NCBI GenBank assembly: GCA_038203025.1
Contig: JBBREK010000002.1
Span: forward strand, 172 to 64,171
DNA from: Planctomycetota bacterium
GTDB taxonomy: Bacteria > Planctomycetota > UBA11346
Length of the DNA stretch: 64,000 bases
Direction: 5' to 3'
The notes below the pieces were generated by a model. The model searched no databases, had not been told where the DNA came from, and saw nothing but the letters and a program-made list of their open reading frames with translations. Positions 16,222 to 47,676 of this stretch are shown here, piece by piece. The position numbers and the translations under genes were made by a program. Numbering within the stretch: the first letter of the stretch is position 1; every line of letters begins with the position of its first letter.

Positions 16222-17308
16222 GATCGCGGTCGCCGGAGAAATCTGGTCGACCAATCTGGGGGACCCCCTGATCCACCACTGCCTCGCGGATCTGCTCCGC
16301 CAGGCTGGGGCAGAGGCGGTGGTGCCGATCGACCTCGAGGACCGCCACGGTTTTCCCGCCGAGGGTTTCGCCCCTGGCGGACAACGGCGATTGCCGCCCA
16401 CCGTCCGGACCGCTGCCTGGTGGCTGCTGCGACGGGGCGGGCGCTGCGCCTCCTGGCGGCATCAGCTGGAGGGCTGCGATGCCCTGCTCCTCGGCGGTGG
16501 CCAGCTGATCGATGACATGGACATGCTCTTTCCGCCTCGCCTAGCCGCGTTAGCCGACGCCGCATACCACCTGGGAATACCGGTGGCAATCGCTGGCTGC
16601 GGGGTCGGTCAACGGTGGACGGCACTGGGACGGCGCCTGCTCGACCGCCGGCTGAGCCGGGTGCTGCGTTCGGTCCTGGTGCGTGACGAAGTCTCGGCCT
16701 CCCGCCTCGCGCAGACCTTCCCGCAATGGCCAACCGCCGCCACTGCACCAGATCCTGCGGTGTGGGCCGGCCGACTTCTCGGACCGGCGGCTGGGTCGCC
16801 CAGGGGGGCGACCATTGGTCTTGGCATCGCCCGACTCGACGGCCTGGATGACGAGGGAAGCCTGGCGTGGTGGCGGCAGCTGGTCGAGCACCTCGCCGGT
16901 GCAGGTCGGCGGTGCGGTGCGTTCACCAACGGAGCCCCCGAGGACGAGGCCCTGCTGCGCCGGCTGGACGGACTGGTCGAGACTGCCCCGCGGCCGCGAT
17001 CACCGGCTGCGCTGGTCGCCACCATAGCAGGCTACTGCTGTTTGGCCTCGCCCCGGCTGCATGCGGCGATCACCGCCTTCTCACTCGGCATCCCGGCGCT
17101 GTCGCTCTCCCCGCTCGGCAAGGTTCGCGGGTTCTGGGACATGGTCGGGGTACCGGGCCGCGCGCCGGGCGTGCCGTCCCCCCTCGAGTCGGCAGGAGCC
17201 CTCGTCGGGCTTGCCGATGGTCCAGGCGATCCGCCCGGGTCGCTCGACCGCGCCAGGTCAATGGTCGCCGAATCTGTCGGCCGGCTGCTCGCCACGACCG
17301 TCGCCTGA
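16211..17308 (+). CDS. polysaccharide pyruvyl transferase family protein (CsaB-like)
   Basis: MGTRIAVAGEIWSTNLGDPLIHHCLADLL and LLLGGGQLIDD motifs. Confidence 0.7.
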   Translation: MGTRIAVAGEIWSTNLGDPLIHHCLADLLRQAGAEAVVPIDLEDRHGFPAEGFAPGGQRRLPPTVRTAAWWLLRRGGRCASWRHQLEGCDALLLGGGQLIDDMDMLFPPRLAALADAAYHLGIPVAIAGCGVGQRWTALGRRLLDRRLSRVLRSVLVRDEVSASRLAQTFPQWPTAATAPDPAVWAGRLLGPAAGSPRGATIGLGIARLDGLDDEGSLAWWRQLVEHLAGAGRRCGAFTNGAPEDEALLRRLDGLVETAPRPRSPAALVATIAGYCCLASPRLHAAITAFSLGIPALSLSPLGKVRGFWDMVGVPGRAPGVPSPLESAGALVGLADGPGDPPGSLDRARSMVAESVGRLLATTVA

Positions 17309-18078
17309 GGCCGCCGTCGGCGGCAGAGACGGCTGCGCACGACGAAGCCCAAGACCGGCAGGACGAGCCCGAACGGCTCGATCAGATAGCGGTGCCACAT
17401 CCGGCGCGGATTGGCGGCGAAGCGGTGCAGCCACTCCAGACCCAGCCTTCCCAACCAACGAGGTGGGGTCGGCTCGGCCCCGATCAGATACTTGGCTGCC
17501 GCCCCGCAGGGCAGCAGGACCGCCTGCGGAAAGCGATGACGGTGCCGCTGCAGCCAGCGCTCCTGCCGCGGCATGCCCATGCCTGCCAGCACCAGTTGTG
17601 GTCGGTGCGCCGCCACCGCCACGGCAACTGTGGAGTCCTCCCCGCTGCCCTCTGCGAAGAAGCCGGGCGCACAAGCAAAAGGAATGCCCGGCCAGCGGAC
17701 CGCGAAAAACGTAAGGAGCGATGCCACGCTGGCCGACTCGCCGCCAACGTGATAGACCCGCCAGCCGTTGCGGTCAGCTTCATCAAGGAGCGGTTCCAGC
17801 CAGTCAAGGTAGGTGGTCCGGTATGCACGTCGGGCCGGGTGGCCGGCAAGACGGGCGACCAGCAACGCCATCATGCCGTCGGCATGGATGATCTCGGCCT
17901 CGCCAAACCAGCCGGATGGGAACGCCCCCTGCCGATGCAGCGCCAAGCTGTGCAAATTGTGGTTGGCCACCACCGCACCGCGACCGGCGCGAACCCGTCC
18001 GCCGATGGCCGCGACCAGCTCGGCCGGAGTGAGGCCGTCGATCCAGGTATCGAGGACGGGGAAGCGCGGCGGCTTCAT
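17032..18078 (-). CDS. WecB/TagA/CpsF-family glycosyltransferase (GT26) with long C-terminal extension
   Basis: VVANHNLHSLAL...HADGMMALLVARL...VYHVGGES...RPQLVLAGMGMPRQERWL...LLPCGAAAKYLIG...PPRWLGRLGLEWLHRFAANPRRMWHRY. The ORF continues about 90 aa past the usual family end. Confidence 0.8.
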   Translation of the reverse strand: MKPPRFPVLDTWIDGLTPAELVAAIGGRVRAGRGAVVANHNLHSLALHRQGAFPSGWFGEAEIIHADGMMALLVARLAGHPARRAYRTTYLDWLEPLLDEADRNGWRVYHVGGESASVASLLTFFAVRWPGIPFACAPGFFAEGSGEDSTVAVAVAAHRPQLVLAGMGMPRQERWLQRHRHRFPQAVLLPCGAAAKYLIGAEPTPPRWLGRLGLEWLHRFAANPRRMWHRYLIEPFGLVLPVLGFVVRSRLCRRRRPQATVVASSRPTDSATIDLARSSDPGGSPGPSASPTRAPADSRGDGTPGARPGTPTMSQNPRTLPSGESDSAGMPSEKAVIAACSRGEAKQQ

Positions 18079-19202
18079 GCCACCCCCAGCAGGTGGTGCC
18101 AGGATGCGACCATCGCGCCGACACCAAACTCCTGCGCCCGCGTGATGGCGGCGGCGCGAAGGCGCGCTGCAAGCACAGCGTCGTCAAGCACGCGGCGCAT
18201 CGCCTTCGCCAGGGCAGCCTGGTCGCCAGTCGGGATGAGGAGGCCGGCGCAGGCCGGGTCAGCGCCAAGAGCATCGCGGTTGCCGGGGATATCACTGGCG
18301 ACCACCGGGCAGCCAGCCTGCATCGCCTCCAGCAGAGCCAGGCTCAGACCCTCGAATCGCGATGGCATGGCGAACAGGTCGGCGGCGGCAAGCAGATCGG
18401 CAACCTCCTCGGCCGGCAACGCCCCGAGCAGATGCAGCCGCCTCGTTGCCCCGCCGACTTCAGCCTGACGGCGCAATCCTTCGGCCAACGGACCATCGCC
18501 GGCGATGGCTGCGTGCAGGTGCGGGATCGCGATCAGGGCCTGGATCAGATCGCCGTGCCCCTTCTCGGGTGATAGTCGCCCCACCGCAACAGCGAGGCGG
18601 TCTTCGGGCAGCAGGCCCAGTCTACGGCGCATGGCGACGCCGTCGCCCGGCCGCCGTTCCTCGATCCCGTTCGGGATGACCACCGGCCGCAACCAGGGCG
18701 GGCAGGCCCGAGCCACGCTGGGGGCAATGGCAACCCTTGCTGTGGCGGCAGGATGGAGGCTTGCACACAACTCCGCGCAACGCGCCACCATTGGCAGGCT
18801 GCCGAGAGGGGAATGCAGCACGGCGAGGCGCTGGCCCACCCCTGCTGCACGTGCCGCCGGCGGAACGAGCAGGTTGGCCCAATGAGTATGGGCAACGACG
18901 GCATGCGGCCGGCACCGCGACAGTTCGCTGCGCATGCGGGCGAGCAGGCCGGACAGGCCACGTAGGGACGGACGCCTGGACAATAGGGTGCGCACTCCCG
19001 GTTCGCCGGGAAACGCGGCTTGCTTGCGGTAGAGGAACCAGGTTTCGGCCGGAATGCCCGCCGCGCGGTGCGCCCGACACAAGCGGACAGCGAGACGCTG
19101 CGCACCGCCGGACTCCTCCTGAGTCACCACGTGGACGATCAAGCCGACCCCGTCTGGACGGGCCGAAGCAAGTGGAAGAACGAGGCGAGAAAGGCCGTCC
19201 AC
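18075..19202 (-). CDS. glycosyltransferase family 4
   Basis: GRLSPEKGHGDLIQAL...LHLLGALPAEEVADLLAAADLFAMPSRFEGLSLALLEAMQAGCPVVASDIPGNRDAL. Confidence 0.85.
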   Translation of the reverse strand: MDGLSRLVLPLASARPDGVGLIVHVVTQEESGGAQRLAVRLCRAHRAAGIPAETWFLYRKQAAFPGEPGVRTLLSRRPSLRGLSGLLARMRSELSRCRPHAVVAHTHWANLLVPPAARAAGVGQRLAVLHSPLGSLPMVARCAELCASLHPAATARVAIAPSVARACPPWLRPVVIPNGIEERRPGDGVAMRRRLGLLPEDRLAVAVGRLSPEKGHGDLIQALIAIPHLHAAIAGDGPLAEGLRRQAEVGGATRRLHLLGALPAEEVADLLAAADLFAMPSRFEGLSLALLEAMQAGCPVVASDIPGNRDALGADPACAGLLIPTGDQAALAKAMRRVLDDAVLAARLRAAAITRAQEFGVGAMVASWHHLLGVA

Positions 19203-20449
19203 AGCAATCCGTTGGGCTCCAGCAGGGTGGTGTCAGACAAGCCCTGCAGCGTCAGCAACCCGACGATGCCCAGCGACCAGATGGCCTGCCCGACGGCCAA
19301 GGCACGCCAGCGGCTCCACAACAGCAGGATGCTGGACACCACCAGCGCCAGCACCATGGCCACGCCGAGCAGGCCGAGTTCAAGCATGGTGTCGATCCAA
19401 CTGCTATGGCCGTTGGCCGCCTCCCAGCCAGTGGCATTCCACACCTCCAGGCTCGGGCCGAGGCCGGACCAGAAACCACGGAAGCCGTACCCGGCAATCG
19501 GCCGGTCGGCGATGTACGGGGCCAGGGCATTCCACAGGGTATAGCGACCCGTCGCCGTCATATCGCGCCCGAGTAGGGTTATCTGCTCGGGCCGGTCTGC
19601 CGAGTAGAAGACCTCCATCACCGCGATCGCCGCCGCAACCAGGACCGCCACGCCGACAATGGTGACCACCTGGGCCGCGACCCGACGGTGCCGGGCCAGC
19701 GCCAACCAGGCGGCGGTCAGCGAGACACAGGTGGCAAGGAACCAGGCGGTGCGCGATCCGCTCATGATGATGCCGGTCACCGTGATCAGCCCGAGGACGA
19801 CCGACCAGCGCCAGCGTGATGGCCAGGCGGTGCCGGCGTTGGCGAAGGCAGCCAGCAGTCCGACCACCATAGCCGTGCCAGCGACATTCTTCTGGATGAA
19901 CAGGCCTCGCCAGTCGCCGTCGTGATCGCCACCGTGGTGTACCGCCCATTCGGGGAAGAGCAGGCTGGCCACCAGCGAGCTGCCGCAGGCGATCCCGGCT
20001 GCAATACCGAGCAGGCGGGAGAGGCGTGGCCAGTCGCAGCACCACCCCAGGTGCATGGCGAGAACGCTGGTGCCGACAAGACCAACCAGGCGGCGCAGGG
20101 TGATGGCCGGCGATTCCGACCACAGCAGTGAAGCGGCGGCGAGAACGACCACGCCGATGGGTAGCAACATCTCCATTGGCAGCCGCAGCGGGCGGACACG
20201 CCGCAGCAGGACAAGGCCGGACACGACATAGCAGCAGCCGATGACCCACTGGAACAGCGGAGTCCCCCCCTGCAGGGTCAGGGCACGGGCTCCAGCAGTG
20301 ACGCCTGTCTCGACGTCGAAGCCGATCGAACCGCTGCTCTGGCTGTACGCCAGCGGGATGAGCCAGCTGAAGACCAGCAACAGGACGCCTATCAGATAGC
20401 CGTCTTCGATGCGCCAGCTCAGGCTCCTGTTTGGCTGCGATTCATGCAC
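19139..20449 (-). CDS. O-antigen ligase / Wzy-type polymerase family membrane protein
   Basis: 436 aa, about 10 or more TM helices, a Wzy_C-like loop and GHSSWIDTMLELGLLGVAMVLALVV. Confidence 0.75.
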   Translation of the reverse strand: MHESQPNRSLSWRIEDGYLIGVLLLVFSWLIPLAYSQSSGSIGFDVETGVTAGARALTLQGGTPLFQWVIGCCYVVSGLVLLRRVRPLRLPMEMLLPIGVVVLAAASLLWSESPAITLRRLVGLVGTSVLAMHLGWCCDWPRLSRLLGIAAGIACGSSLVASLLFPEWAVHHGGDHDGDWRGLFIQKNVAGTAMVVGLLAAFANAGTAWPSRWRWSVVLGLITVTGIIMSGSRTAWFLATCVSLTAAWLALARHRRVAAQVVTIVGVAVLVAAAIAVMEVFYSADRPEQITLLGRDMTATGRYTLWNALAPYIADRPIAGYGFRGFWSGLGPSLEVWNATGWEAANGHSSWIDTMLELGLLGVAMVLALVVSSILLLWSRWRALAVGQAIWSLGIVGLLTLQGLSDTTLLEPNGLLWTAFLASFFHLLRPVQTGSA

Positions 20450-21560: not shown

Positions 21561-24500
21561 TCAGCCTGGCCCCGCAAGCGTGACACGCACCAGGCGCAAC
21601 GCGTCGGTGCGCAACGGCGTGCCGCTACCAGGCAGCGAGCGCACCTCGATCGGCCAGACATTGGTCGGAGCAAGGCGGATCAGACCGAGTTCGACCCAGC
21701 CAGAGACCGCCGGGGCCTTTTGCTGCAACTGACCGAGGCCGTCGGTGCCATCTGCGTCGCTGAGGCTGAATACGGCGGTGCCGCCGTTGGTCGGATTCAC
21801 CACGCGATAGGCCATCACCATGTAATCGCCCTCAGCCGGCGGGGCGTACCAACGCGCTGCCGCAGTCGCCACATCGCTCGAATAGCGGGTGGGGCCGCCC
21901 GTTGCTCCGAGCGTGCCACTGCTGGTCCACCACGCACCAGCCTCCTCGCGGTAGCTGATCGATGACGTCGGAATGGTGATATCCTCGGTAGGCAAGGCCT
22001 CAAATCGCACCGCGTCGGCCCGCACCGGTCCATCATTTGAAACGCCCTGGAGGGTGACTCGTCCCTGGCCGGCCAGGATCGGAACGGTTCCGAGCTCGAC
22101 CCACCGGCTGACGCCCGCGGTCTGGTTCAGCAGAGTCGTCGTGGTGCCGAGAGCGTGATCAAGGCCGACCCGCACCTGGTTGGCGCTGTTGAGGTCGCAG
22201 ACGCAGTAGACCGAGACCTTGTAAAGTCCTGGCGCCAGGACCGGCTCCCATACCGCCGAGGCACCGGGGTCGGTGCTGTAGCGGCTGGTGCCTCCGTTCG
22301 GGCTGGGAAGGATGCTGTCCCACCACGCACCGGAGGTTTCACGATAGCCCTGCTGGCCTCGGTCGAGTGTCACCGTCGTCTCGGGAGCGGCCGTCGGAGT
22401 GAGCCGCACTGCATCGGCGCGGAGGATGCCGGCTACCCCTGGCTTGCTGATGTCGATCATCGCCGCCCCCGGTCCCATCCAAACCTTGCCGAGGCTGACC
22501 CATCCGGCGCTGCCGGAGCGGAGGTCAAGATGCTGCGTCCAGGCACCGTGCAGACCGGTCATGCGGACCGCGGCCAGGTCTGACGAATTGGGGTCATAGA
22601 CGGCCCACACGCCAACTTCGAACCAGCCGGTGAGGTCGAGGTCGAAGGTATACGCGGCGCGCGCTGACGCATCGGCGCTCCAGCGGGCGGTGCTGCCGCT
22701 CCAGCCCTGGTGGACCGTGCTGTCCCACCAGGCTCCCGTCTCGGCATATCCGGCTTCGCCATTGTCGATCAACCAGACCGGATCGTTGTCGGCCTCTACC
22801 ACCAGTTCCGCTGGGTGGTCCACGACAACGACCCCGGGCGATGGTACAACTGCGACCTGCAGTGATTCCTGCGGTTCGCGGATGTCGTCATCGACTACCG
22901 CTATCACCACAGAGCCTTCCGTCGACCCGGCTGCAATTGTCACGCTGTTCGGGATCTGGTCCAGATCACGGCCGGCACGCAGGCTCCCGCCAGTGCTGAG
23001 CTGGAGGACCAAGTCTGTGTTATCAGGCCTGTTGCGCCGAGCCGTCAGCACCAATGTGCCCCCTTCTTGCGCCGTCCCTCCAACCAAGGACACCTCGGCT
23101 GGATCGGCAACCGGATTCACCGTCACCGCAACGCTCGCCGTCGCGCTGCCTCCGTTGCCGTCGCTGACCGTCAGGCCGAAGCTGTCGACACCAGCAAAAT
23201 CCGCGTTCGGCTGGTACGTTACCGCACCGGTGCCCGCGTCGACCGTCGCCGTGCCGTTGGCCGGCTGGCTGGCCAGCGACCAGGTTAGGGCGCCGCTATC
23301 TACATCGCTCGCCACCGCCTGGCCGGCGATGACGGTGTCCTCATCGCCGGTCAGGCTCAAATCCTGCGCCACCGGGGCGTCGTTGACCGGGGTCACGTCG
23401 ACCGTGGCGGTGACCACGTTCGAGGTGCCGCTGGCGGCGGTGACGGTGACCGAGACGGTGCGCTGGGCGACGTCCGGGGCCTGGCTGGTGTTGTCGTAGG
23501 CGACGCTGCGCAGCACCGCCTGGTAGGCGGCCGGCGTCGCAACGCCCGACAGGGTCAGGGTGCCGCTGGCGTCGTCCCAGGCCGCGCTGAGGCCGGCCTG
23601 CAGGGTGGCACCGAGGCGGTCCTGGCCGGCCCGGTGGTTGCCGCTGATCTGCGCCACGGCGCCGGTCAGCTGCGCGACGCCGAAGCCGTCGACGGCGAGG
23701 GCCGGCAGCACCGGCACCGGCGCTGCATCCTCGACGTAGGCGACGCTGCCCGAGCCGGAGAGGCTGGGGACGATCGGGCTGAGGGCGAGGTCGTCGTAGT
23801 AGACCGGGCCGGTGCCGTTGGCGTAGAGGTCGACGGCAGCGAGGTTGCGCACGCCGGTGCCGGTGGTTCCCTTGGTCCAGCTCTTCTCGTAGAGCTGCAC
23901 GCCGTCGTAGAAGAAGCGCTGGCGGTCGGCGGCAAAGTCGATGTCGACGCGCAGCGCAACCCAGCGGCCCTTGATCAGTGCGGTCTCGGCGTTGTCGAAG
24001 TCGGAATGGACGCGGTTGTTGCCGCCATTGAAGTAGACCTGCGTCGACCAGTTGCGGGCCGCGTCGTTGTCCTTGTAGGTGTTCAGCAGGATGAAGTAGG
24101 TCTTACCGGTGAAGCCAGCCGGCACGTACTGCCAGGCGCTGTAGCTCCAGCCGCCGGCGTCAATGCCCTTGTACTCGTGCACCAGATCAGTGGCGCCAGC
24201 GATGGCCACGCTGTTGGCGCCGCTGCGCGCCTGCGCCGCGCTGACCGTGGCGGTAGCGGCGGCGTTTGCGTCCCAGCCGTGCCAGCGGGTCTGGCCCTGC
24301 AGTTCGAGCTGATGCAGGTCGCTGCCGGCAGGCAGGCCGTCGAATCCTTCGCTCCACGGTGGGGTGCTGCGCGTAACCACGGCGACGGTGCGGGCGGCGG
24401 CGTTGGACTCGCTGCCGTCGCTGACGGTGAAGGCGATGGCGCGGGCGGCGGTGCCGGGGAAGGCCTGCGTGCTGCGCCAGGTCACCGCGCGCAGCGCGGC

Positions 24501-27020
24501 CTGGTACTGCGCCAGGGTGGCGCTGCCGCTGAGGGTCAGGGTGCCGGTGCCGGCATCCCATGTCCCACTGATGCCGTTCTGGTTGGTGAAGGCCAGGACA
24601 TCGCCGGCCTGAAGATTGCCGGCGATGCGCACGCTGGCGCTGCTGAGGTTGACGCTGTCGACGTCGCTGACGGTCAGCGCACCGGTGACCTTGAGGGCAG
24701 GATCGCCGTCGCGGAACCAGGCCAGGCCGGTCTCGATGCCGGCCAGGACCGGGGCGTCGTTGACCGGCGCCACTGCCACCGTCACCGTCACCGGCACGCT
24801 GACCGTGCCGTCGTTGACCAGCAGGACGAAGCTGTCGCTGCCGTTGAAGTCGGGGTTCGGGGTGTAGACGACCGCGCCGCTGAGCAGATCGACCACGCCG
24901 AGGGAGCCGTTCGCCGGGTCGGAGCCGAGCGACCAGTGCAGCGTGTCGCCGTCGACGTCGCTGGCCGACGGGGTGACGGTGACCGCCACGTCCTCGTCGG
25001 TGGCCGCGGCGCCCGAGGCCACTGGCGCGTCGTTGACCGGCGCCACCGCCACGGTCACCGGCAGCTCGACGGTGGTGAAGCCGTCGTAGACCGCCAGGGT
25101 GAAGGCGTCGCTGCCGTTGCTGTCCGAGTCCGGCGTGTAGACGACCGCACCGGTAGCGGCGTCGACCCTCACCGAGCCCTTGGCCGGCTGGGTGACCACG
25201 CTCCAGGTCAGGGCGTCGCCATCCGGATCGGTCGCGGTGGCGGTGCCGGAGATGACGCTGTCCTCGTCGCCGGCGAGGGCGAGCTCATCGACGGTCGGCG
25301 GCCGGCTGGGCAGCAGGCGCCACGACGGCACCACCTCGCGCGGCTGGCTGGCGCTGCTCCACAGCAGGGTGGCGCCGGCGGCGCCGGAGATGTCGCTCTT
25401 CTCCACGCGGATGGCGTGGGCGTGGCCGGCGGTCAGGGCGACGGCGGCGCTCAGCGTGCGATGGCCGCGTGCCCGCCAGTCGTTGATCACCTGCACGCCG
25501 TCGACCCACACGCGCACGCCATCGTCGGCAGCGACGCTGATGGTGTAGGTCTCGGTGAAGCGCGGGATGATGGCGCCTTCCCAGCGCGCCGACCAGCCAT
25601 CGGCGGAGAGGCCGGAGGCGGGGGCGGCGATGCCCCAGCGCCAGTCGAGGCGCGGATCGATGCGCACTACGGCCGGTGTGCCGGTGAGCGTCGTGTTGGC
25701 GAACAGGCTGGCGGCGAGACCGCGACCGGTGCCGTCGGGGACGCTCTGCACCACCGGACGCAGGGCGCCGGTGGGAATGTCACGCCGCGACATGCTGGCC
25801 GACTGCCACTGCAGACGCACCGAGGCATTGCCGCTCAGCTCGACGTACTCGACTATTAGCGGCAGGGCCTGGCCGGCGACCAGATCGATCGTCGCGGTGC
25901 TGGAGCCGGTGCCATGGAAGCGGTCGATGATCAGCTGGCCGCCGAGATAGACGCGGGCTCCGTCGTCAGCGCTGAGACGGAAGGTGGTGGCTTCGCTCCA
26001 CGCCGGGATCACCTCGCCTTCCCAGCGGGCGGCGAAGAAGTCGCTGGGCAGGCCACTGGCCGGTGGCGCGGTCTGCCAGTTGAAGTTCAGGCCGGTGTCG
26101 GTGCGCGAGAGCAGCGGCGCGGCACCCGGATTGGTCCCGCCAATGTAGCTGGCGAGCAGCCCGCCGTTGGGTCCGCCACCAAGCACGGTGACGCTGCGGC
26201 TGGCGACCGGTCCCAGCTTGCCGTCGGTGCCGCGCACCGCGGCGCGCACGTTGGCGCTGGCGGTAAGGGTGAGCAGGCCGCCGGCGACCGCCGGGCTGGA
26301 GGCGGTGGGCGCGCTGCCGTCGAGGGTGTAGATGATGACGCCGCCATCGAGCGGCGTGGCCAGGCCAAGCTGCACACTGCCGGTGCCGCTGGACGGGCCG
26401 GTGATCACCGGCGGGAATTCGTTGAGCTTGTCAGCCGAGCGCAGCTGGGCCTGCGGGATGATTTCGGCCGGGCCGCCGTCGCGCGACCACGACAGCTTCG
26501 CCGAAGCCTTGCCAAAGTTCTCGTAGTACTCGACGCGGATGCTGACCGCCGTGTTCTTGTTCAGCTTGATCGGCGCCGAGCTGACGTCGCGCGCCGACTG
26601 GTTGACCCAGCGGTCGATGACCAGGTTGCCGTCGATGTAGAGGCGCACGCCGTCGTCGGTGCGGGCGATGAAGACGTAGTCGCCCTTGTCGGGCGGTTCG
26701 ACCGTGCCGGTCCAGGTGGCGCCGAAGCGGTTGGCGGGGATGCCGGTGGCCGGCGCGCCGCTCTTCCAGTCGGCGTTGATGGACGGGGTGACGATCTCGA
26801 CGATCGGGGCCGGGACATCGAGCGGATAGAACTCGACGCTGAGTCCGGGCACGCCTTCGGTCCCGGCCTGACCGGCGAACGGCCGCACCGCGGGACGCAG
26901 GCCGCTGGAGAGGTTGCCGACCTCACGGCCCAGGCGGGCCAACTGATGATCGGTGGCGTCGACCCCGGACGGCAGTCCGGTCGCGCACCACAGCAGGGTA
27001 GGAGCAATGGATGTCAGCAT
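21561..27020 (-). CDS. giant secreted surface protein (1819 aa): 3x PA14, Fn3-associated-like, cadherin-like Ig repeats, LamG-like, Calx-beta, 4x golvesin-C-terminal-like domains
   Basis: PA14 signatures occur 3 times (for example FGATWTGTVEPPDKGDYVFIARTDDGVRLYIDGNLVIDRW...VEYYENFGKASAKLSW). There are DEDSVISGTATATDPDGDALTWSV-type repeats. Calx-beta is seen in LSTGGSLRAGRDLDQIPNSVTIAAGSTEGSVVIAVVDDDIREPQESL. The C-terminus has four repeats of GY.ETG.WW.S...G....RYS......A.W...L..G.Y.V......W..LG.......ADAVR. Confidence 0.9.
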   Translation of the reverse strand: MLTSIAPTLLWCATGLPSGVDATDHQLARLGREVGNLSSGLRPAVRPFAGQAGTEGVPGLSVEFYPLDVPAPIVEIVTPSINADWKSGAPATGIPANRFGATWTGTVEPPDKGDYVFIARTDDGVRLYIDGNLVIDRWVNQSARDVSSAPIKLNKNTAVSIRVEYYENFGKASAKLSWSRDGGPAEIIPQAQLRSADKLNEFPPVITGPSSGTGSVQLGLATPLDGGVIIYTLDGSAPTASSPAVAGGLLTLTASANVRAAVRGTDGKLGPVASRSVTVLGGGPNGGLLASYIGGTNPGAAPLLSRTDTGLNFNWQTAPPASGLPSDFFAARWEGEVIPAWSEATTFRLSADDGARVYLGGQLIIDRFHGTGSSTATIDLVAGQALPLIVEYVELSGNASVRLQWQSASMSRRDIPTGALRPVVQSVPDGTGRGLAASLFANTTLTGTPAVVRIDPRLDWRWGIAAPASGLSADGWSARWEGAIIPRFTETYTISVAADDGVRVWVDGVQVINDWRARGHRTLSAAVALTAGHAHAIRVEKSDISGAAGATLLWSSASQPREVVPSWRLLPSRPPTVDELALAGDEDSVISGTATATDPDGDALTWSVVTQPAKGSVRVDAATGAVVYTPDSDSNGSDAFTLAVYDGFTTVELPVTVAVAPVNDAPVASGAAATDEDVAVTVTPSASDVDGDTLHWSLGSDPANGSLGVVDLLSGAVVYTPNPDFNGSDSFVLLVNDGTVSVPVTVTVAVAPVNDAPVLAGIETGLAWFRDGDPALKVTGALTVSDVDSVNLSSASVRIAGNLQAGDVLAFTNQNGISGTWDAGTGTLTLSGSATLAQYQAALRAVTWRSTQAFPGTAARAIAFTVSDGSESNAAARTVAVVTRSTPPWSEGFDGLPAGSDLHQLELQGQTRWHGWDANAAATATVSAAQARSGANSVAIAGATDLVHEYKGIDAGGWSYSAWQYVPAGFTGKTYFILLNTYKDNDAARNWSTQVYFNGGNNRVHSDFDNAETALIKGRWVALRVDIDFAADRQRFFYDGVQLYEKSWTKGTTGTGVRNLAAVDLYANGTGPVYYDDLALSPIVPSLSGSGSVAYVEDAAPVPVLPALAVDGFGVAQLTGAVAQISGNHRAGQDRLGATLQAGLSAAWDDASGTLTLSGVATPAAYQAVLRSVAYDNTSQAPDVAQRTVSVTVTAASGTSNVVTATVDVTPVNDAPVAQDLSLTGDEDTVIAGQAVASDVDSGALTWSLASQPANGTATVDAGTGAVTYQPNADFAGVDSFGLTVSDGNGGSATASVAVTVNPVADPAEVSLVGGTAQEGGTLVLTARRNRPDNTDLVLQLSTGGSLRAGRDLDQIPNSVTIAAGSTEGSVVIAVVDDDIREPQESLQVAVVPSPGVVVVDHPAELVVEADNDPVWLIDNGEAGYAETGAWWDSTVHQGWSGSTARWSADASARAAYTFDLDLTGWFEVGVWAVYDPNSSDLAAVRMTGLHGAWTQHLDLRSGSAGWVSLGKVWMGPGAAMIDISKPGVAGILRADAVRLTPTAAPETTVTLDRGQQGYRETSGAWWDSILPSPNGGTSRYSTDPGASAVWEPVLAPGLYKVSVYCVCDLNSANQVRVGLDHALGTTTTLLNQTAGVSRWVELGTVPILAGQGRVTLQGVSNDGPVRADAVRFEALPTEDITIPTSSISYREEAGAWWTSSGTLGATGGPTRYSSDVATAAARWYAPPAEGDYMVMAYRVVNPTNGGTAVFSLSDADGTDGLGQLQQKAPAVSGWVELGLIRLAPTNVWPIEVRSLPGSGTPLRTDALRLVRVTLAGPG

Positions 27021-27182
27021 GGCGTTCTCGCCCGTATGCTAGACCCCGAAGGTGGCGAGATAAAGCATTAAACGCCAGGAAATATGCAGTGTTTGCCGCG
27101 CGCGACGGGGCAGATCGGCCCGCTTCGGGATGGGCCTCTGACCATCGCAGCTCGACGGACAGGAGACCCAGCGACTCATTCA

Positions 27183-27446
27183 CCTTAGAAAACGCAGATG
27201 CACAGGAGGACCAGAGATACCAGAGGCACGACGCACAGGAGGACCGGAGAGAGCAGGAGGACCGGAGAGAGCAGGAGAGAGCAGGAGAGAGCAGGAGGGA
27301 GCAGGAGGGAGCAGGAGGGAGCAGGAGAGAGCAGAGGCAGCGTTTATGGCTCGCGGGCAAATCCTCCAATGGGTGATACGTCCGTCGTTGCTTAAACCCT
27401 TTCCCACTCTGGTCACTCTGGTGCTCTGTGTGAATCCCATCGTCGG
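27183..27446 (+). ncRNA. conserved structured intergenic element, copy 1 (candidate cis-regulatory RNA or shared regulatory DNA; family unknown)
   Basis: Shares ordered identical blocks with 42421-42580 (rc): TAGAAAACGCAGA, ACAGGAGGACCAGAG, TATGGCTCGCGG, CCCACTCTGGTCACTCTGGTGCTC, GAATCCCATCG. The 21-nt arms 27205-27225 and 27407-27427 are complementary (18/21). Confidence 0.5.
27233..27340 (+). repeat. purine-rich tandem repeat array (decamer GCAGGAG[A/G]GA about 7 times, preceded by 18-20-nt GCA(CA)GGAGGACCGGAGAGA units)
   Basis: Read directly: gcaggagaga gcaggagaga gcaggaggga gcaggaggga gcaggaggga gcaggagaga. This is absent from copy 2 of the element. Confidence 0.9.
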
Positions 27447-27668
27447 TTTTCGGTTCACCCCATTCTGCTCTTTCGCATCTCTGCGTCTCCTGTCCTGCAC
27501 CTGCGTTTCCGCTTGGCAGCCAGTGATTGTGCGGGGCTTGGATGTACCCATTCGGCGTTCCCGAACCACACCGCTGGGACAGGACGGTTCGGACCCCACA
27601 TCCCACACGGCACAGCGCACGCCAACCCCCCTCGACTGGCGTCGTGTCTCGGCGCCCTTAGTATACCA

Positions 27669-29036
27669 TTGATCGTGTCGACGCCGTCCCTGCCTCCCTC
27701 CTGGCGCTTATCTGTCTGGGCGATCGATCTCGCTGCAGCGGCTGGAGCCGTCCCGTTGGCAGCGCGCCTGGTCGACGGGGCCTGGCTGGGCGGATCTGCC
27801 CAGCTCGCTGCGCCCCTCGCCGCCGTCCTCGCCGCCTTGCTACTGCTGCTCGCAGGGGCGCCGCTGCCGGGCACCGGTCGGCCCTGGTCGGCCACAGCGC
27901 ACGGCGCGCTTGTAGTCGGCACCGCTGCCGGGCTCGCCGCTGTCGCTGCCGCCTTGCTTGGCCCGCTGTCGTGGCCGGCCGTCGCCGTTGCCGCAGGGGC
28001 CGTACTGCCGCCGACCATCGCCATCCGACTCGCCCTATGGATGGCCCTGCGCAGCCGGCCACTGCGCCGCATCGTGCTGATCGGACCACTCGACTGCCGC
28101 CTGCGCCTGCGCGAACATCTGCTGCGCCATCCCGAACTGCACTGCGCGGTGGTCGCCGAGGTCGGACCGGGCACCGCGGTGATGAGCGACTGCCCGAGTC
28201 ATCCGCTCGCCGAGTTAGAAGAGGCGGTAGCCGAGGCCGATCCCGATGAGGTGCTGCTGTCCACCGGCTTCGACGACCGGCTGCTGCTGATGGATGTGCT
28301 GGCACGGCTGCTGACCCGGCCGCTGGTGGTGCGCTATGTGCCCGACCCCGAGGCGGTCCCGCTGTTCTGTCCGCGACCGGCCGACATCGCCGGCCTGCCC
28401 GCCATCGACCTGTCCAACGGGCCGCTGAGCGCCGGCGCCGAGGTCGCCAAGTGGGTCGAGGACAAGGTGGTCGCGATCATCGCCCTCTTCTTCCTCGCTG
28501 GGCCCATGCTGCTGATCGCCGTGCTGATCAAGCTGACCAGCCCCGGGCCGGTACTCTTCGTGCAGGAGCGCCAGGGCCGCTGGGGCCGCAGCATCCGGGT
28601 ATTCAAGTTCCGCACCATGCGCCGCGACGTGTGCTCCCAGGACATCACCACTGGCCGCTTCCGCCAAGTCGAGCAGGGCGATCCGCGCATCACCCCGCTG
28701 GGGCGATTCCTGCGCAATACCTCCCTCGACGAGACGCCGCAGTTCCTCAACGTCCTGCTCGGTGACATGTCGGTGGTCGGACCGCGGCCGCATCCCATCG
28801 CCCTCAACCGCCGCTTCGCCAACGAGATTGGCGAGCTGATGCGGCGCCACTACGTCAAGCCGGGCATCACCGGTCTGGCCCAGATCAACGGCGCCCGCGG
28901 CGAGACGCGCACGGTAGAGGACATGCGCCGGCGCATCAACCTCGACCTGGAGTACCTGCGCACCTGGTCGCTATGGCTCGACCTGGCCATCATCCTGCGC
29001 ACCTTCGTCGGCGGCTGGATCAATCGCCAGCCGTGA
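27669..29036 (+). CDS. polyprenyl-phosphate glycosyl-1-phosphate transferase (WcaJ/EpsB-type priming enzyme)
   Basis: PGPVLFVQERQGRWGRSIRVFKFRTM...DPRITPLGRFLRNTSLDETPQFLNVLLGDMSVVGPRPH...KPGITGLAQINGARGE. The track ORF starts at TTG 27513, but its first about 50 aa overlap the repeat element and look non-protein. TTG 27669 or GTG 27675 are preferred, and the start remains uncertain. Confidence 0.85.
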   Translation: MIVSTPSLPPSWRLSVWAIDLAAAAGAVPLAARLVDGAWLGGSAQLAAPLAAVLAALLLLLAGAPLPGTGRPWSATAHGALVVGTAAGLAAVAAALLGPLSWPAVAVAAGAVLPPTIAIRLALWMALRSRPLRRIVLIGPLDCRLRLREHLLRHPELHCAVVAEVGPGTAVMSDCPSHPLAELEEAVAEADPDEVLLSTGFDDRLLLMDVLARLLTRPLVVRYVPDPEAVPLFCPRPADIAGLPAIDLSNGPLSAGAEVAKWVEDKVVAIIALFFLAGPMLLIAVLIKLTSPGPVLFVQERQGRWGRSIRVFKFRTMRRDVCSQDITTGRFRQVEQGDPRITPLGRFLRNTSLDETPQFLNVLLGDMSVVGPRPHPIALNRRFANEIGELMRRHYVKPGITGLAQINGARGETRTVEDMRRRINLDLEYLRTWSLWLDLAIILRTFVGGWINRQP

Positions 29037-42405: not shown

Positions 42406-42420
42406 GGATTGATCCTAAAC

Positions 42421-42580
42421 TCGGCGATGGGATTCCCACGGAGCACCAGAGTGACCAGAGTGGGAGCGTGTAGAAGCAACGACGACAGTCTCACCCTGTG
42501 GAGAATCTAACCGCGAGCCATACCTCCCTGCCTCTACCTCTGGTCCCTCTGGTCCTCCTGTTCCTCTGCGTTTTCTAGGT
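42421..42580 (-). ncRNA. conserved structured intergenic element, copy 2 (sense-upstream of the DUF2780 gene)
   Basis: The reverse complement aligns block by block with 27183-27446. Arms 42538-42558 and 42440-42460 pair 19/21. The element ends 15 nt before the DUF2780 ATG. Confidence 0.5.
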
Positions 42581-42604
42581 TGATCGCGGTGCGCTGGTGC
42601 CCGC

Positions 42605-47489: not shown

Positions 47490-47502
47490 GTGCTATGTCA
47501 CC

Positions 47503-47664
<162 letters not shown>

Positions 47665-47676
47665 AGTCTCACCTGC

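Follow-up and report, generated by a model that had tools for sequence, protein, structure and literature searches.

The closest described systems are the bacterial MITEs, non-autonomous elements that derive from insertion sequences (IS), such as the Correia elements of Neisseria, MITEAba12, Nezha, and Chunjie. The elements that we describe here resemble them in being small (166-270 bp) and non-coding, in having inverted repeats at both termini, and in the constant length of the target-site duplication. They also have many intergenic copies, the potential to form hairpins, a patchy distribution, and ends that resemble those of full-length IS, here in related genomes. They are unlike other bacterial MITEs in that their subterminal arms are made of 7-10-nt tandem units whose number varies by copy, and in that the autonomous partner was not found in the same assembly.

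ISEcp1, which we take to be a member of the IS1380 family, offers a second comparison. Its IRL is CCTAGATTCTACGT and it makes 5-bp direct repeats (PMC6061673). The IS1380 family comprises prokaryotic relatives of piggyBac and has been used as an outgroup (PMC10813416). As in this family, the ends of the elements start with CCTAGA and finish with TAGG and the duplication is 5 bp; the same planctomycete family also contains IS1380-like transposases bounded by CCTA(A/G)A ends, with ATCAT as the duplication. Unlike an IS1380 insertion sequence, the element has no transposase and its target is consistently NTNAN.

Pneumococcal BOX elements and the heptameric intergenic SSR classes, the latter reportedly described by Rehm et al. 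2015, are likewise modular, with a variable number of tandem modules. The TAACTGA repeats of Beggiatoaceae are said to be one intergenic SSR class. In particular lineages, arrays with units of 7-10 nt are common, with no known function. Unlike the modules of BOX elements and SSRs, the variable modules here are found in both of the complementary arms of an element that is transposon-like and has target-site duplications; we know of no target-site duplications of BOX elements or SSR classes.

The array that we analyzed is also like the CsrB/RsmZ sponges and the CsrA-bound leaders (pgaA, glgC), in that one strand carries numerous (C)AGGA motifs at short intervals in the vicinity of EPS genes. It is unlike CsrB/RsmZ in lacking conservation, a family match, and, as far as the predicted folds show, a defined presentation of GGA in hairpin loops. 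The host CsrA is, moreover, partnered by FliW, and the motifs come from a recent internal duplication within a mobile element.

The window is the whole 64,000-nt stretch of DNA that was analyzed (C2:172-64171), and it comes from a MAG of 402 contigs that is 85.7% complete. The array lies in a 270-bp element with imperfect terminal inverted repeats and a perfect 5-bp duplication. This element (copy 1) is located in a divergent intergenic region, given as 650 bp in the initial annotation and measured here as 651 bp, between a PA14/cadherin gene and a Bac_transf transferase gene. The features of the locus are:

21561-27020, minus strand: PA14 / cadherin-like / Big_9 surface protein gene, 1819 aa, the divergent neighbor (Pfam)
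27179-27183, no strand: left target-site duplication TTCAC, identical to 27454-27458
27184-27453, plus strand: family-A MITE copy 1, 270 bp
27200-27232, plus strand: canonical 5′ arm GCACAGGAGGACCAGAGATACCAGAGGCACGAC, which aligns with the arm of all other copies and is the source of the duplicated units
27233-27270, plus strand: two long units GCA(CA)GGAGGACCGGAGAGA, duplicates of the arm start
27271-27330, plus strand: six decamers GCAGGAG(A/G)GA
27331-27402, plus strand: canonical sequence resumes (GCAGAGGCAGCGTTTATGGCTCGCGGGCAAATCCTCC...), followed by the element core, from alignment with other copies
27403-27426, plus strand: 3′ arm CCCACTCTGGTCACTCTGGTGCTC, the complement of GAGGACCAGAGATACCAGAGG, unexpanded in copy 1
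27454-27458, no strand: right target-site duplication TTCAC, identical to 27179-27183
27477-27508, minus strand: inverted relic of the 5′ end of a second family-A element, AAACGCAGGTGCAGGACAGGAGACGCAGAGAT, 32 nt (local alignment)
about 27672-29036, plus strand: Bac_transf priming sugar transferase gene, downstream (Pfam; start taken from conservation with the congener G006)

Copy 1 consists, in order, of the terminus CTTAGAAAACGCAGATG, the purine-rich 5′ arm, the core, the 3′ arm, and the terminus CATCGTCGGTTTTCGG. Within the imperfect terminal inverted repeats CCTAGAAAACGC.GAT.. pairs with ..ATCGCCGATTTTAGG; the two long arms also complement each other. Family-A copies (166-270 bp) have no coding capacity, and the sole ORFs in them are frames that run through the repeat by chance. 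One such small ORF, which spans the array at 27198-27395, was dismissed since a period of 10 nt cannot hold a reading frame.

There are 17 GGA trinucleotides within 27205-27326, and extending the count to 27340 still gives 17. The shorter interval also contains 11 AGGA, 5 AGGAGG, and 9 CAGGA motifs. The composition of 27205-27340 is 66 G, 47 A, 22 C, and 1 T (83% purine). Across the whole window the GGA background is 1.8 per 136 nt on average (sd 1.5), and the runner-up site has 10. Tandem Repeats Finder identifies a repeat with a period of 10 at 27246-27334 (9.1 copies, 90% matches), and its score of 136 is the top score of the window. The program also reports a period of 18 with 2.3 copies, which represents the two long units at 27233-27270. 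The GGA-dense tract and its decamers, both described in the initial annotation, are confirmed by these counts. The array is made up of one 20-nt unit, one 18-nt unit, and six 10-nt units of the form GCAGGAGRGA:

27233-27252, plus strand: 20-nt unit GCACAGGAGGACCGGAGAGA
27253-27270, plus strand: 18-nt unit GCAGGAGGACCGGAGAGA
27271-27330, plus strand: decamers GCAGGAGAGA x2, GCAGGAGGGA x3, and GCAGGAGAGA x1

The repeat units derive from the element's own arm sequence. The first 18 nt of the canonical arm (27200-27232) reappear at 27233-27250 with one change, each decamer is the 18-mer minus GGACCGGA, and the A/G variants of the decamer occur in blocks (AGA twice, GGA three times, and AGA once). 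We consider it likely, with a probability of roughly 80%, that the tract is a copy-specific minisatellite produced by replication slippage or unequal duplication in the purine-rich arm of a MITE inserted between the PA14-adhesin operon and the priming glycosyltransferase gene. A first step may have duplicated the 18-20-nt arm start; a second step, in which GGACCGGA was lost, would have created the 10-mer, and a third would have amplified the 10-mer in blocks. The GGA density is then probably a passive outcome of the duplicated arm sequence CAGGAGGACC and not a selected protein-binding array, and effects on neighboring genes, through promoter spacing or 5′-UTR content, are probably incidental.

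The genome contains at least nine family-A copies with 75-100% identity. Canonical copies are 166-185 bp long and have the form CCTAGAAAACGCAGATGAACAGGAGGACCAGAGATACCAGAGGTAGAGGCAGGGATTTATGGCTCGCG...CCCACTCTGGTCACTCTGGTGCTC.GTGTGAATCCCATCGCCGATTTTAGG. The second copy in the window is of this unexpanded type:

42414-42579, minus strand: family-A MITE copy 2, 166 bp, unexpanded, with the duplication ATCAA at 42580-42584 and 42409-42413

Copy 1 had been described as about 100 nt longer than copy 2, and the difference is 104 nt (270 vs 166 bp). A canonical copy of 168 nt is predicted to fold into one long hairpin (-73 kcal/mol, z = -4.8 vs shuffles). The expanded copy 1 is predicted to fold no better than its shuffles (z = +0.4 and -0.2), with no regular loop presentation and with much of the array weakly paired. 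The fold-energy excess is gone in copy 1 because the 5′ arm alone is expanded. We considered a structured RNA and rejected it: the consensus hairpin from 14 aligned copies has only one compensatory pair and several broken ones. Inverted transposon arms account for this hairpin better than selection for an RNA fold does. The tract had also been called prone to form H-DNA. This was rejected, as its longest uninterrupted purine run is 9 nt and a C interrupts every unit.

The relic at 27477-27508 lies 19 nt past copy 1. Its alignment score is 29-32, compared with a mean of 15.4 for shuffles (sd 2.4, maximum 25). It shows long-range pairing with the start of copy 1, and it explains the CT-rich partner that pairs with the copy 1 start in the predicted fold.

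Family-A copies vary in a zone between CAGGAGG and TTTATGGCTCGCG. ACCAGAGAY, repeated three to four times, is one type of expansion in this zone of other copies. The expansions of individual copies are:

C61 copy: CCAGAGACA x3
C269 copy: ACCAGAGAT x4, and CACTCTGGT x3 in the other arm
C100 copy: GGCAGA x4
C191 copy: CAGGAGGAC x2
C347 copy: CACTCTGGT x4
a copy in the related genome G014: GACCAGAGA x3
a copy in the related genome G048: CACTCTGGT x8

The runs of CACTCTGGT (x3-8) sit in the opposite arm from the other family-A expansions. The 10-mer array of the window is the largest tandem expansion in the arms of these MITEs. The occurrence of different expansions in the same zone of other copies supports the reading of this zone as slippage-prone. 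The initial annotation had offered a slippage-prone tract as one of its two possibilities, and that proposal gains indirect support from the different tandem expansions in paralogous copies and from the variable heptamer arms of the sister families described below.

The pattern GCAGGAGRGA x2.7 has no second occurrence in this genome. Among 401 Planctomycetota genomes, the 10-mer array pattern is found in one other, G390, which belongs to a different family. In G390 the purine arm of an unrelated multicopy hairpin repeat, present at six or more loci (L102, L106), consists of (GAGCAGGRGA) x3-4. The G390 array may be convergent, or this type of arm may be distantly related to that of the window.

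Of the congeners that have the locus, G006 is the closest; its PA14 gene is 80% identical (DNA) and its transferase 82% identical (protein). Its intergenic region is 277 bp vs 651 bp here and lacks the element; the divergence of the intergenic sequence precludes a base-level alignment. In G001, G003, and G006, the region upstream of the DUF2780 orthologue lacks copy 2. The absence of the element at the orthologous sites indicates that both insertions are recent. An exact-protein look-up of the neighboring epimerase and a metagenome scan for the left junction identified no further assembly that contains the locus.

Among related genomes the element has a patchy distribution and occurs in multiple copies. 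There are 18 family-A matches in G014. Full family-A copies elsewhere are found in one species-representative genome only ("MAG: Planctomycetota bacterium isolate Co_metawrap_1822"), and canonical copies with CTCAC/CTCAC duplications are present on three metagenome contigs, one of them from a microbial mat. Contig matches in Rokubacteria and Opitutaceae MAGs lie inside coding sequence and were rejected as chance matches.

Family A is part of a superfamily of at least 60 MITEs with the terminus CCTAGAAA(A/T)CGCAG and 5-bp NTNAN duplications. A terminus search of the same genome recovered families B and C, which share the terminus CCTAGAAATCGCAG with family A. Family B has about 35-40 copies with arms (GTTCGCG)n and (CGCGAAC)n, and family C has about 11 copies with arms (GTTCGTC)n and (GACGAAC)n. 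The number of heptamers per arm in these two families is roughly 1-12 and differs by copy. According to an approximate counting script, only 7 of the 23 copies counted in family B, and 2 of 10 in family C, have the same number of units in both arms. Example loci from the approximately 60 superfamily members in this genome are C22:21326, C34:19101, and C101:11937. The window itself has a diverged family-B-like member at 47497-47667, with (GGTTCGC) x4.6 and an inverted partner.

Perfect 5-bp flanking repeats are present at 27 elements across the three families in this genome, and all of them are NTNAN. Six of the nine family-A copies have such repeats, and the sequence differs between copies: the duplications include TTCAC (copy 1), ATCAA (copy 2), CTAAC, CTCAC (twice), and CTCAT. 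The metagenome copies L070 and L072 likewise have perfect 5-bp NTNAN repeats, and the congener G001 contains a nested insertion, an element within an element (L032). The exact terminus CCTAGAAAACGCAG occurs in 21 copies in G045, in 8 in G061, and in 0-2 elsewhere in the taxonomic family; a control search with the reversed pattern gave 0-1 matches. The internal sequences behind this terminus are very diverse. At one locus in G005 (L013, C262:2300-2800), a 152-bp arm-core-arm element is present with its flank as a tandem triplication. This is tandem amplification at the level of the element as well as at the level of the unit.

The termini and duplication length of the superfamily resemble those of IS1380-like insertion sequences. 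When the 48 genomes of the taxonomic family were searched with an IS1380 model, 10 had transposases. No IS1380 transposase and no full-length insertion sequence with matching ends was found in the 85.7% complete assembly of the host, and the long loci behind solitary termini in G041, G050, G002, and G005 contain no transposase. Complete insertion sequences are present in two of the related genomes:

L095:1253-2962 (G058): complete 1.7-kb IS1380-like insertion sequence with the duplication ATCAT/ATCAT
L096:99-1805 (G049): complete 1.7-kb IS1380-like insertion sequence

The ends of the G058 insertion sequence are CCTAAACACCGCGTTAG and CCTAGACGCCGCGTTAG, and those of the G049 insertion sequence are CCTAAAGGCCGCGATAG and CCTAAATGCCGCGTTAG. 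Together they read CCTA(A/G)A..CCGCG(T/A)TAG, and their first 6-13 nt are common to the MITE ends. The G049 end CCTAAATGCCGCGTTAG is identical to the family-B 3′ end CCTAAATGCCGCAGT over 12 nt. The two DDE transposases (523-525 aa) align over their full length with NF033539. Their scores of 162-166 bits fall slightly short of its curated IS1380 cut-off (180), and they also match PF13701 and PF01609. From the ends and the duplication length we infer that the elements behave as MITEs of an IS1380-like group and may be mobilized by transposases of this kind. A limited literature search found no description of this planctomycete MITE superfamily with tandem-repeat arms, and it appears to be undescribed.

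Some alternatives to a minisatellite within a MITE arm would give the array a selected function. It could be a contingency locus of the phase or rheostat type, in which gain or loss of 10-bp units alters promoter spacing or phasing and generates reversible but heritable expression variants. The tract does lie in the divergent control region between surface-structure genes, its unit is about one helical turn, and the repeat zones of the element family change in unit number over evolutionary time. We nevertheless regard selection for switching as unlikely, since units of 10 bp keep the helical phase and would switch expression poorly. In classical contingency loci the tract is 1-7 bp and is located between the -35 and -10 boxes or inside ORFs, and similar arm expansions are found in copies downstream of genes or between convergent genes, where the promoter logic fails.

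Regulation by CsrA was the other possibility raised in the initial annotation, which named csrA and fliW as the genes to look for. RNA from the plus strand of the array, as a leader or as a separate transcript, would bind CsrA and either repress the EPS gene or titrate the protein. The genome encodes both csrA and fliW, and they are adjacent:

C6:18507-18662 (L001:1408-1659): csrA, extended 83-aa form (PF02599, 74.9 bits)

The csrA gene is directly downstream of fliW (PF02623), in the order fliW, csrA, HDOD-domain gene (L001, C6:~17000-20200). Its presence speaks for binding, yet its position next to fliW is the arrangement of a protein antagonist. Where the two genes are paired, as established in Bacillus subtilis and Campylobacter, CsrA is antagonized by protein and acts mainly in flagellin control. 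To our knowledge there are no sponge RNAs in FliW-paired CsrA systems.

The motifs themselves would suit CsrA binding. The 17 GGA and 9 CAGGA (10-18-nt spacing) lie in sense orientation relative to the EPS priming transferase gene, some 340-470 nt ahead of it, much of the array is predicted to pair only weakly, and the CAGGA words resemble the CsrB repeat, CAGGA(U/C/A)G. Against this, a canonical copy has no more than 3-4 GGA, each of them hidden within the hairpin stem, and equally long arrays in sister elements, such as those of GTTCGCG and GTTCGTC, are not GGA-rich. The array is limited to a single MITE copy, and the element is missing at the orthologous locus in G006. Rfam 15, searched with the whole window, has no match to the array at the gathering threshold or at E up to 10, CsrB/Rsm families included; two tRNAs and a miRNA match due to chance were all that the window scan and a second, permissive scan (26900-27900) returned. 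A promoter and terminator scan of 26950-27750 found no site. The proposal of a CsrA target is thus left unsupported by the pairing of csrA with fliW, the lack of an Rfam match, the uniqueness of the array, and the absence of the element from G006, and we consider it very unlikely.

A broader version of the same idea is that the planctomycete IS1380-like MITEs, once inserted upstream of a gene, are carriers of evolvable protein- or ribosome-binding arrays (CAGGA/AGGAGG) that recruit CsrA or act as Shine-Dalgarno decoys for ribosomes, and to this we give slightly less credence again. If it were true, tandem arms would grow binding sites and bring surface-polysaccharide synthesis under new post-transcriptional control, and mobile DNA would be a route to de novo members of the Csr regulon.

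That the length or order of the array is an artefact of short-read assembly is extremely improbable: the MAG is fragmented into 402 contigs and longer (GGAAGGC)n arrays do end contigs, but this tract of about 100 bp is short enough for single reads or k-mers to span, has ordered blocks of A/G variants and unique flanks, and is located on a 65-kb contig.

The feature is of an ordinary kind, most probably a copy-specific minisatellite in an IS1380-like MITE. What resembles a regulatory RNA is best explained as a repeat expansion in mobile DNA, and annotation as a CsrA site or as a riboswitch-like leader is unwarranted. The findings should be of interest for studies of mobile elements and of planctomycete genomes, given a large MITE superfamily linked to IS1380-like (piggyBac-related) transposases. 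These elements put long hairpins at operon junctions, which matters for annotation, binning, and studies of intergenic regulation in the phylum.

Genome-wide, the array of the window is not the densest in GGA. Arrays of (GGAAGGC)n at four contig ends have 13-20 GGA per 136 nt. They consist of 13-20 or more units and are located at C255:1-140 (minus strand), C340:3030-3145, C293:4440-4557, and the contig end of C153. As these arrays end contigs, the elements appear to break MAG assemblies. On C255 the (GGAAGGC)n array is followed by an inverted partner (CTTCCGCCTTCC...), and this locus resembles a further hairpin element whose purine arm has over-expanded.

The core of the NTNAN duplication is TGA, TAA, or TCA, the last being TGA on the opposite strand. 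TCAT, which on the opposite strand reads ATGA, is present in 12 of the 27 duplications (CTCAT, ATCAT, TTCAT, and GTCAT). Elements often coincide precisely with a stop codon, or with the ATGA at which the stop and start of two operon genes overlap, and at such a site the duplication restores both stop and start.

The ATG of the DUF2780 gene (42405) is 8 nt beyond the end of copy 2, and the terminal TTTAGGA of the MITE contains the only Shine-Dalgarno-like AGGA of this gene. The DUF2780 gene in G001 has a 17-nt spacer that is free of the element. Directly upstream of the start of the DUF2780 orthologue in G006 (L067, C11) there is a further example of the heptamer arrays found at gene starts across this lineage, (GGCCGCT) x7.
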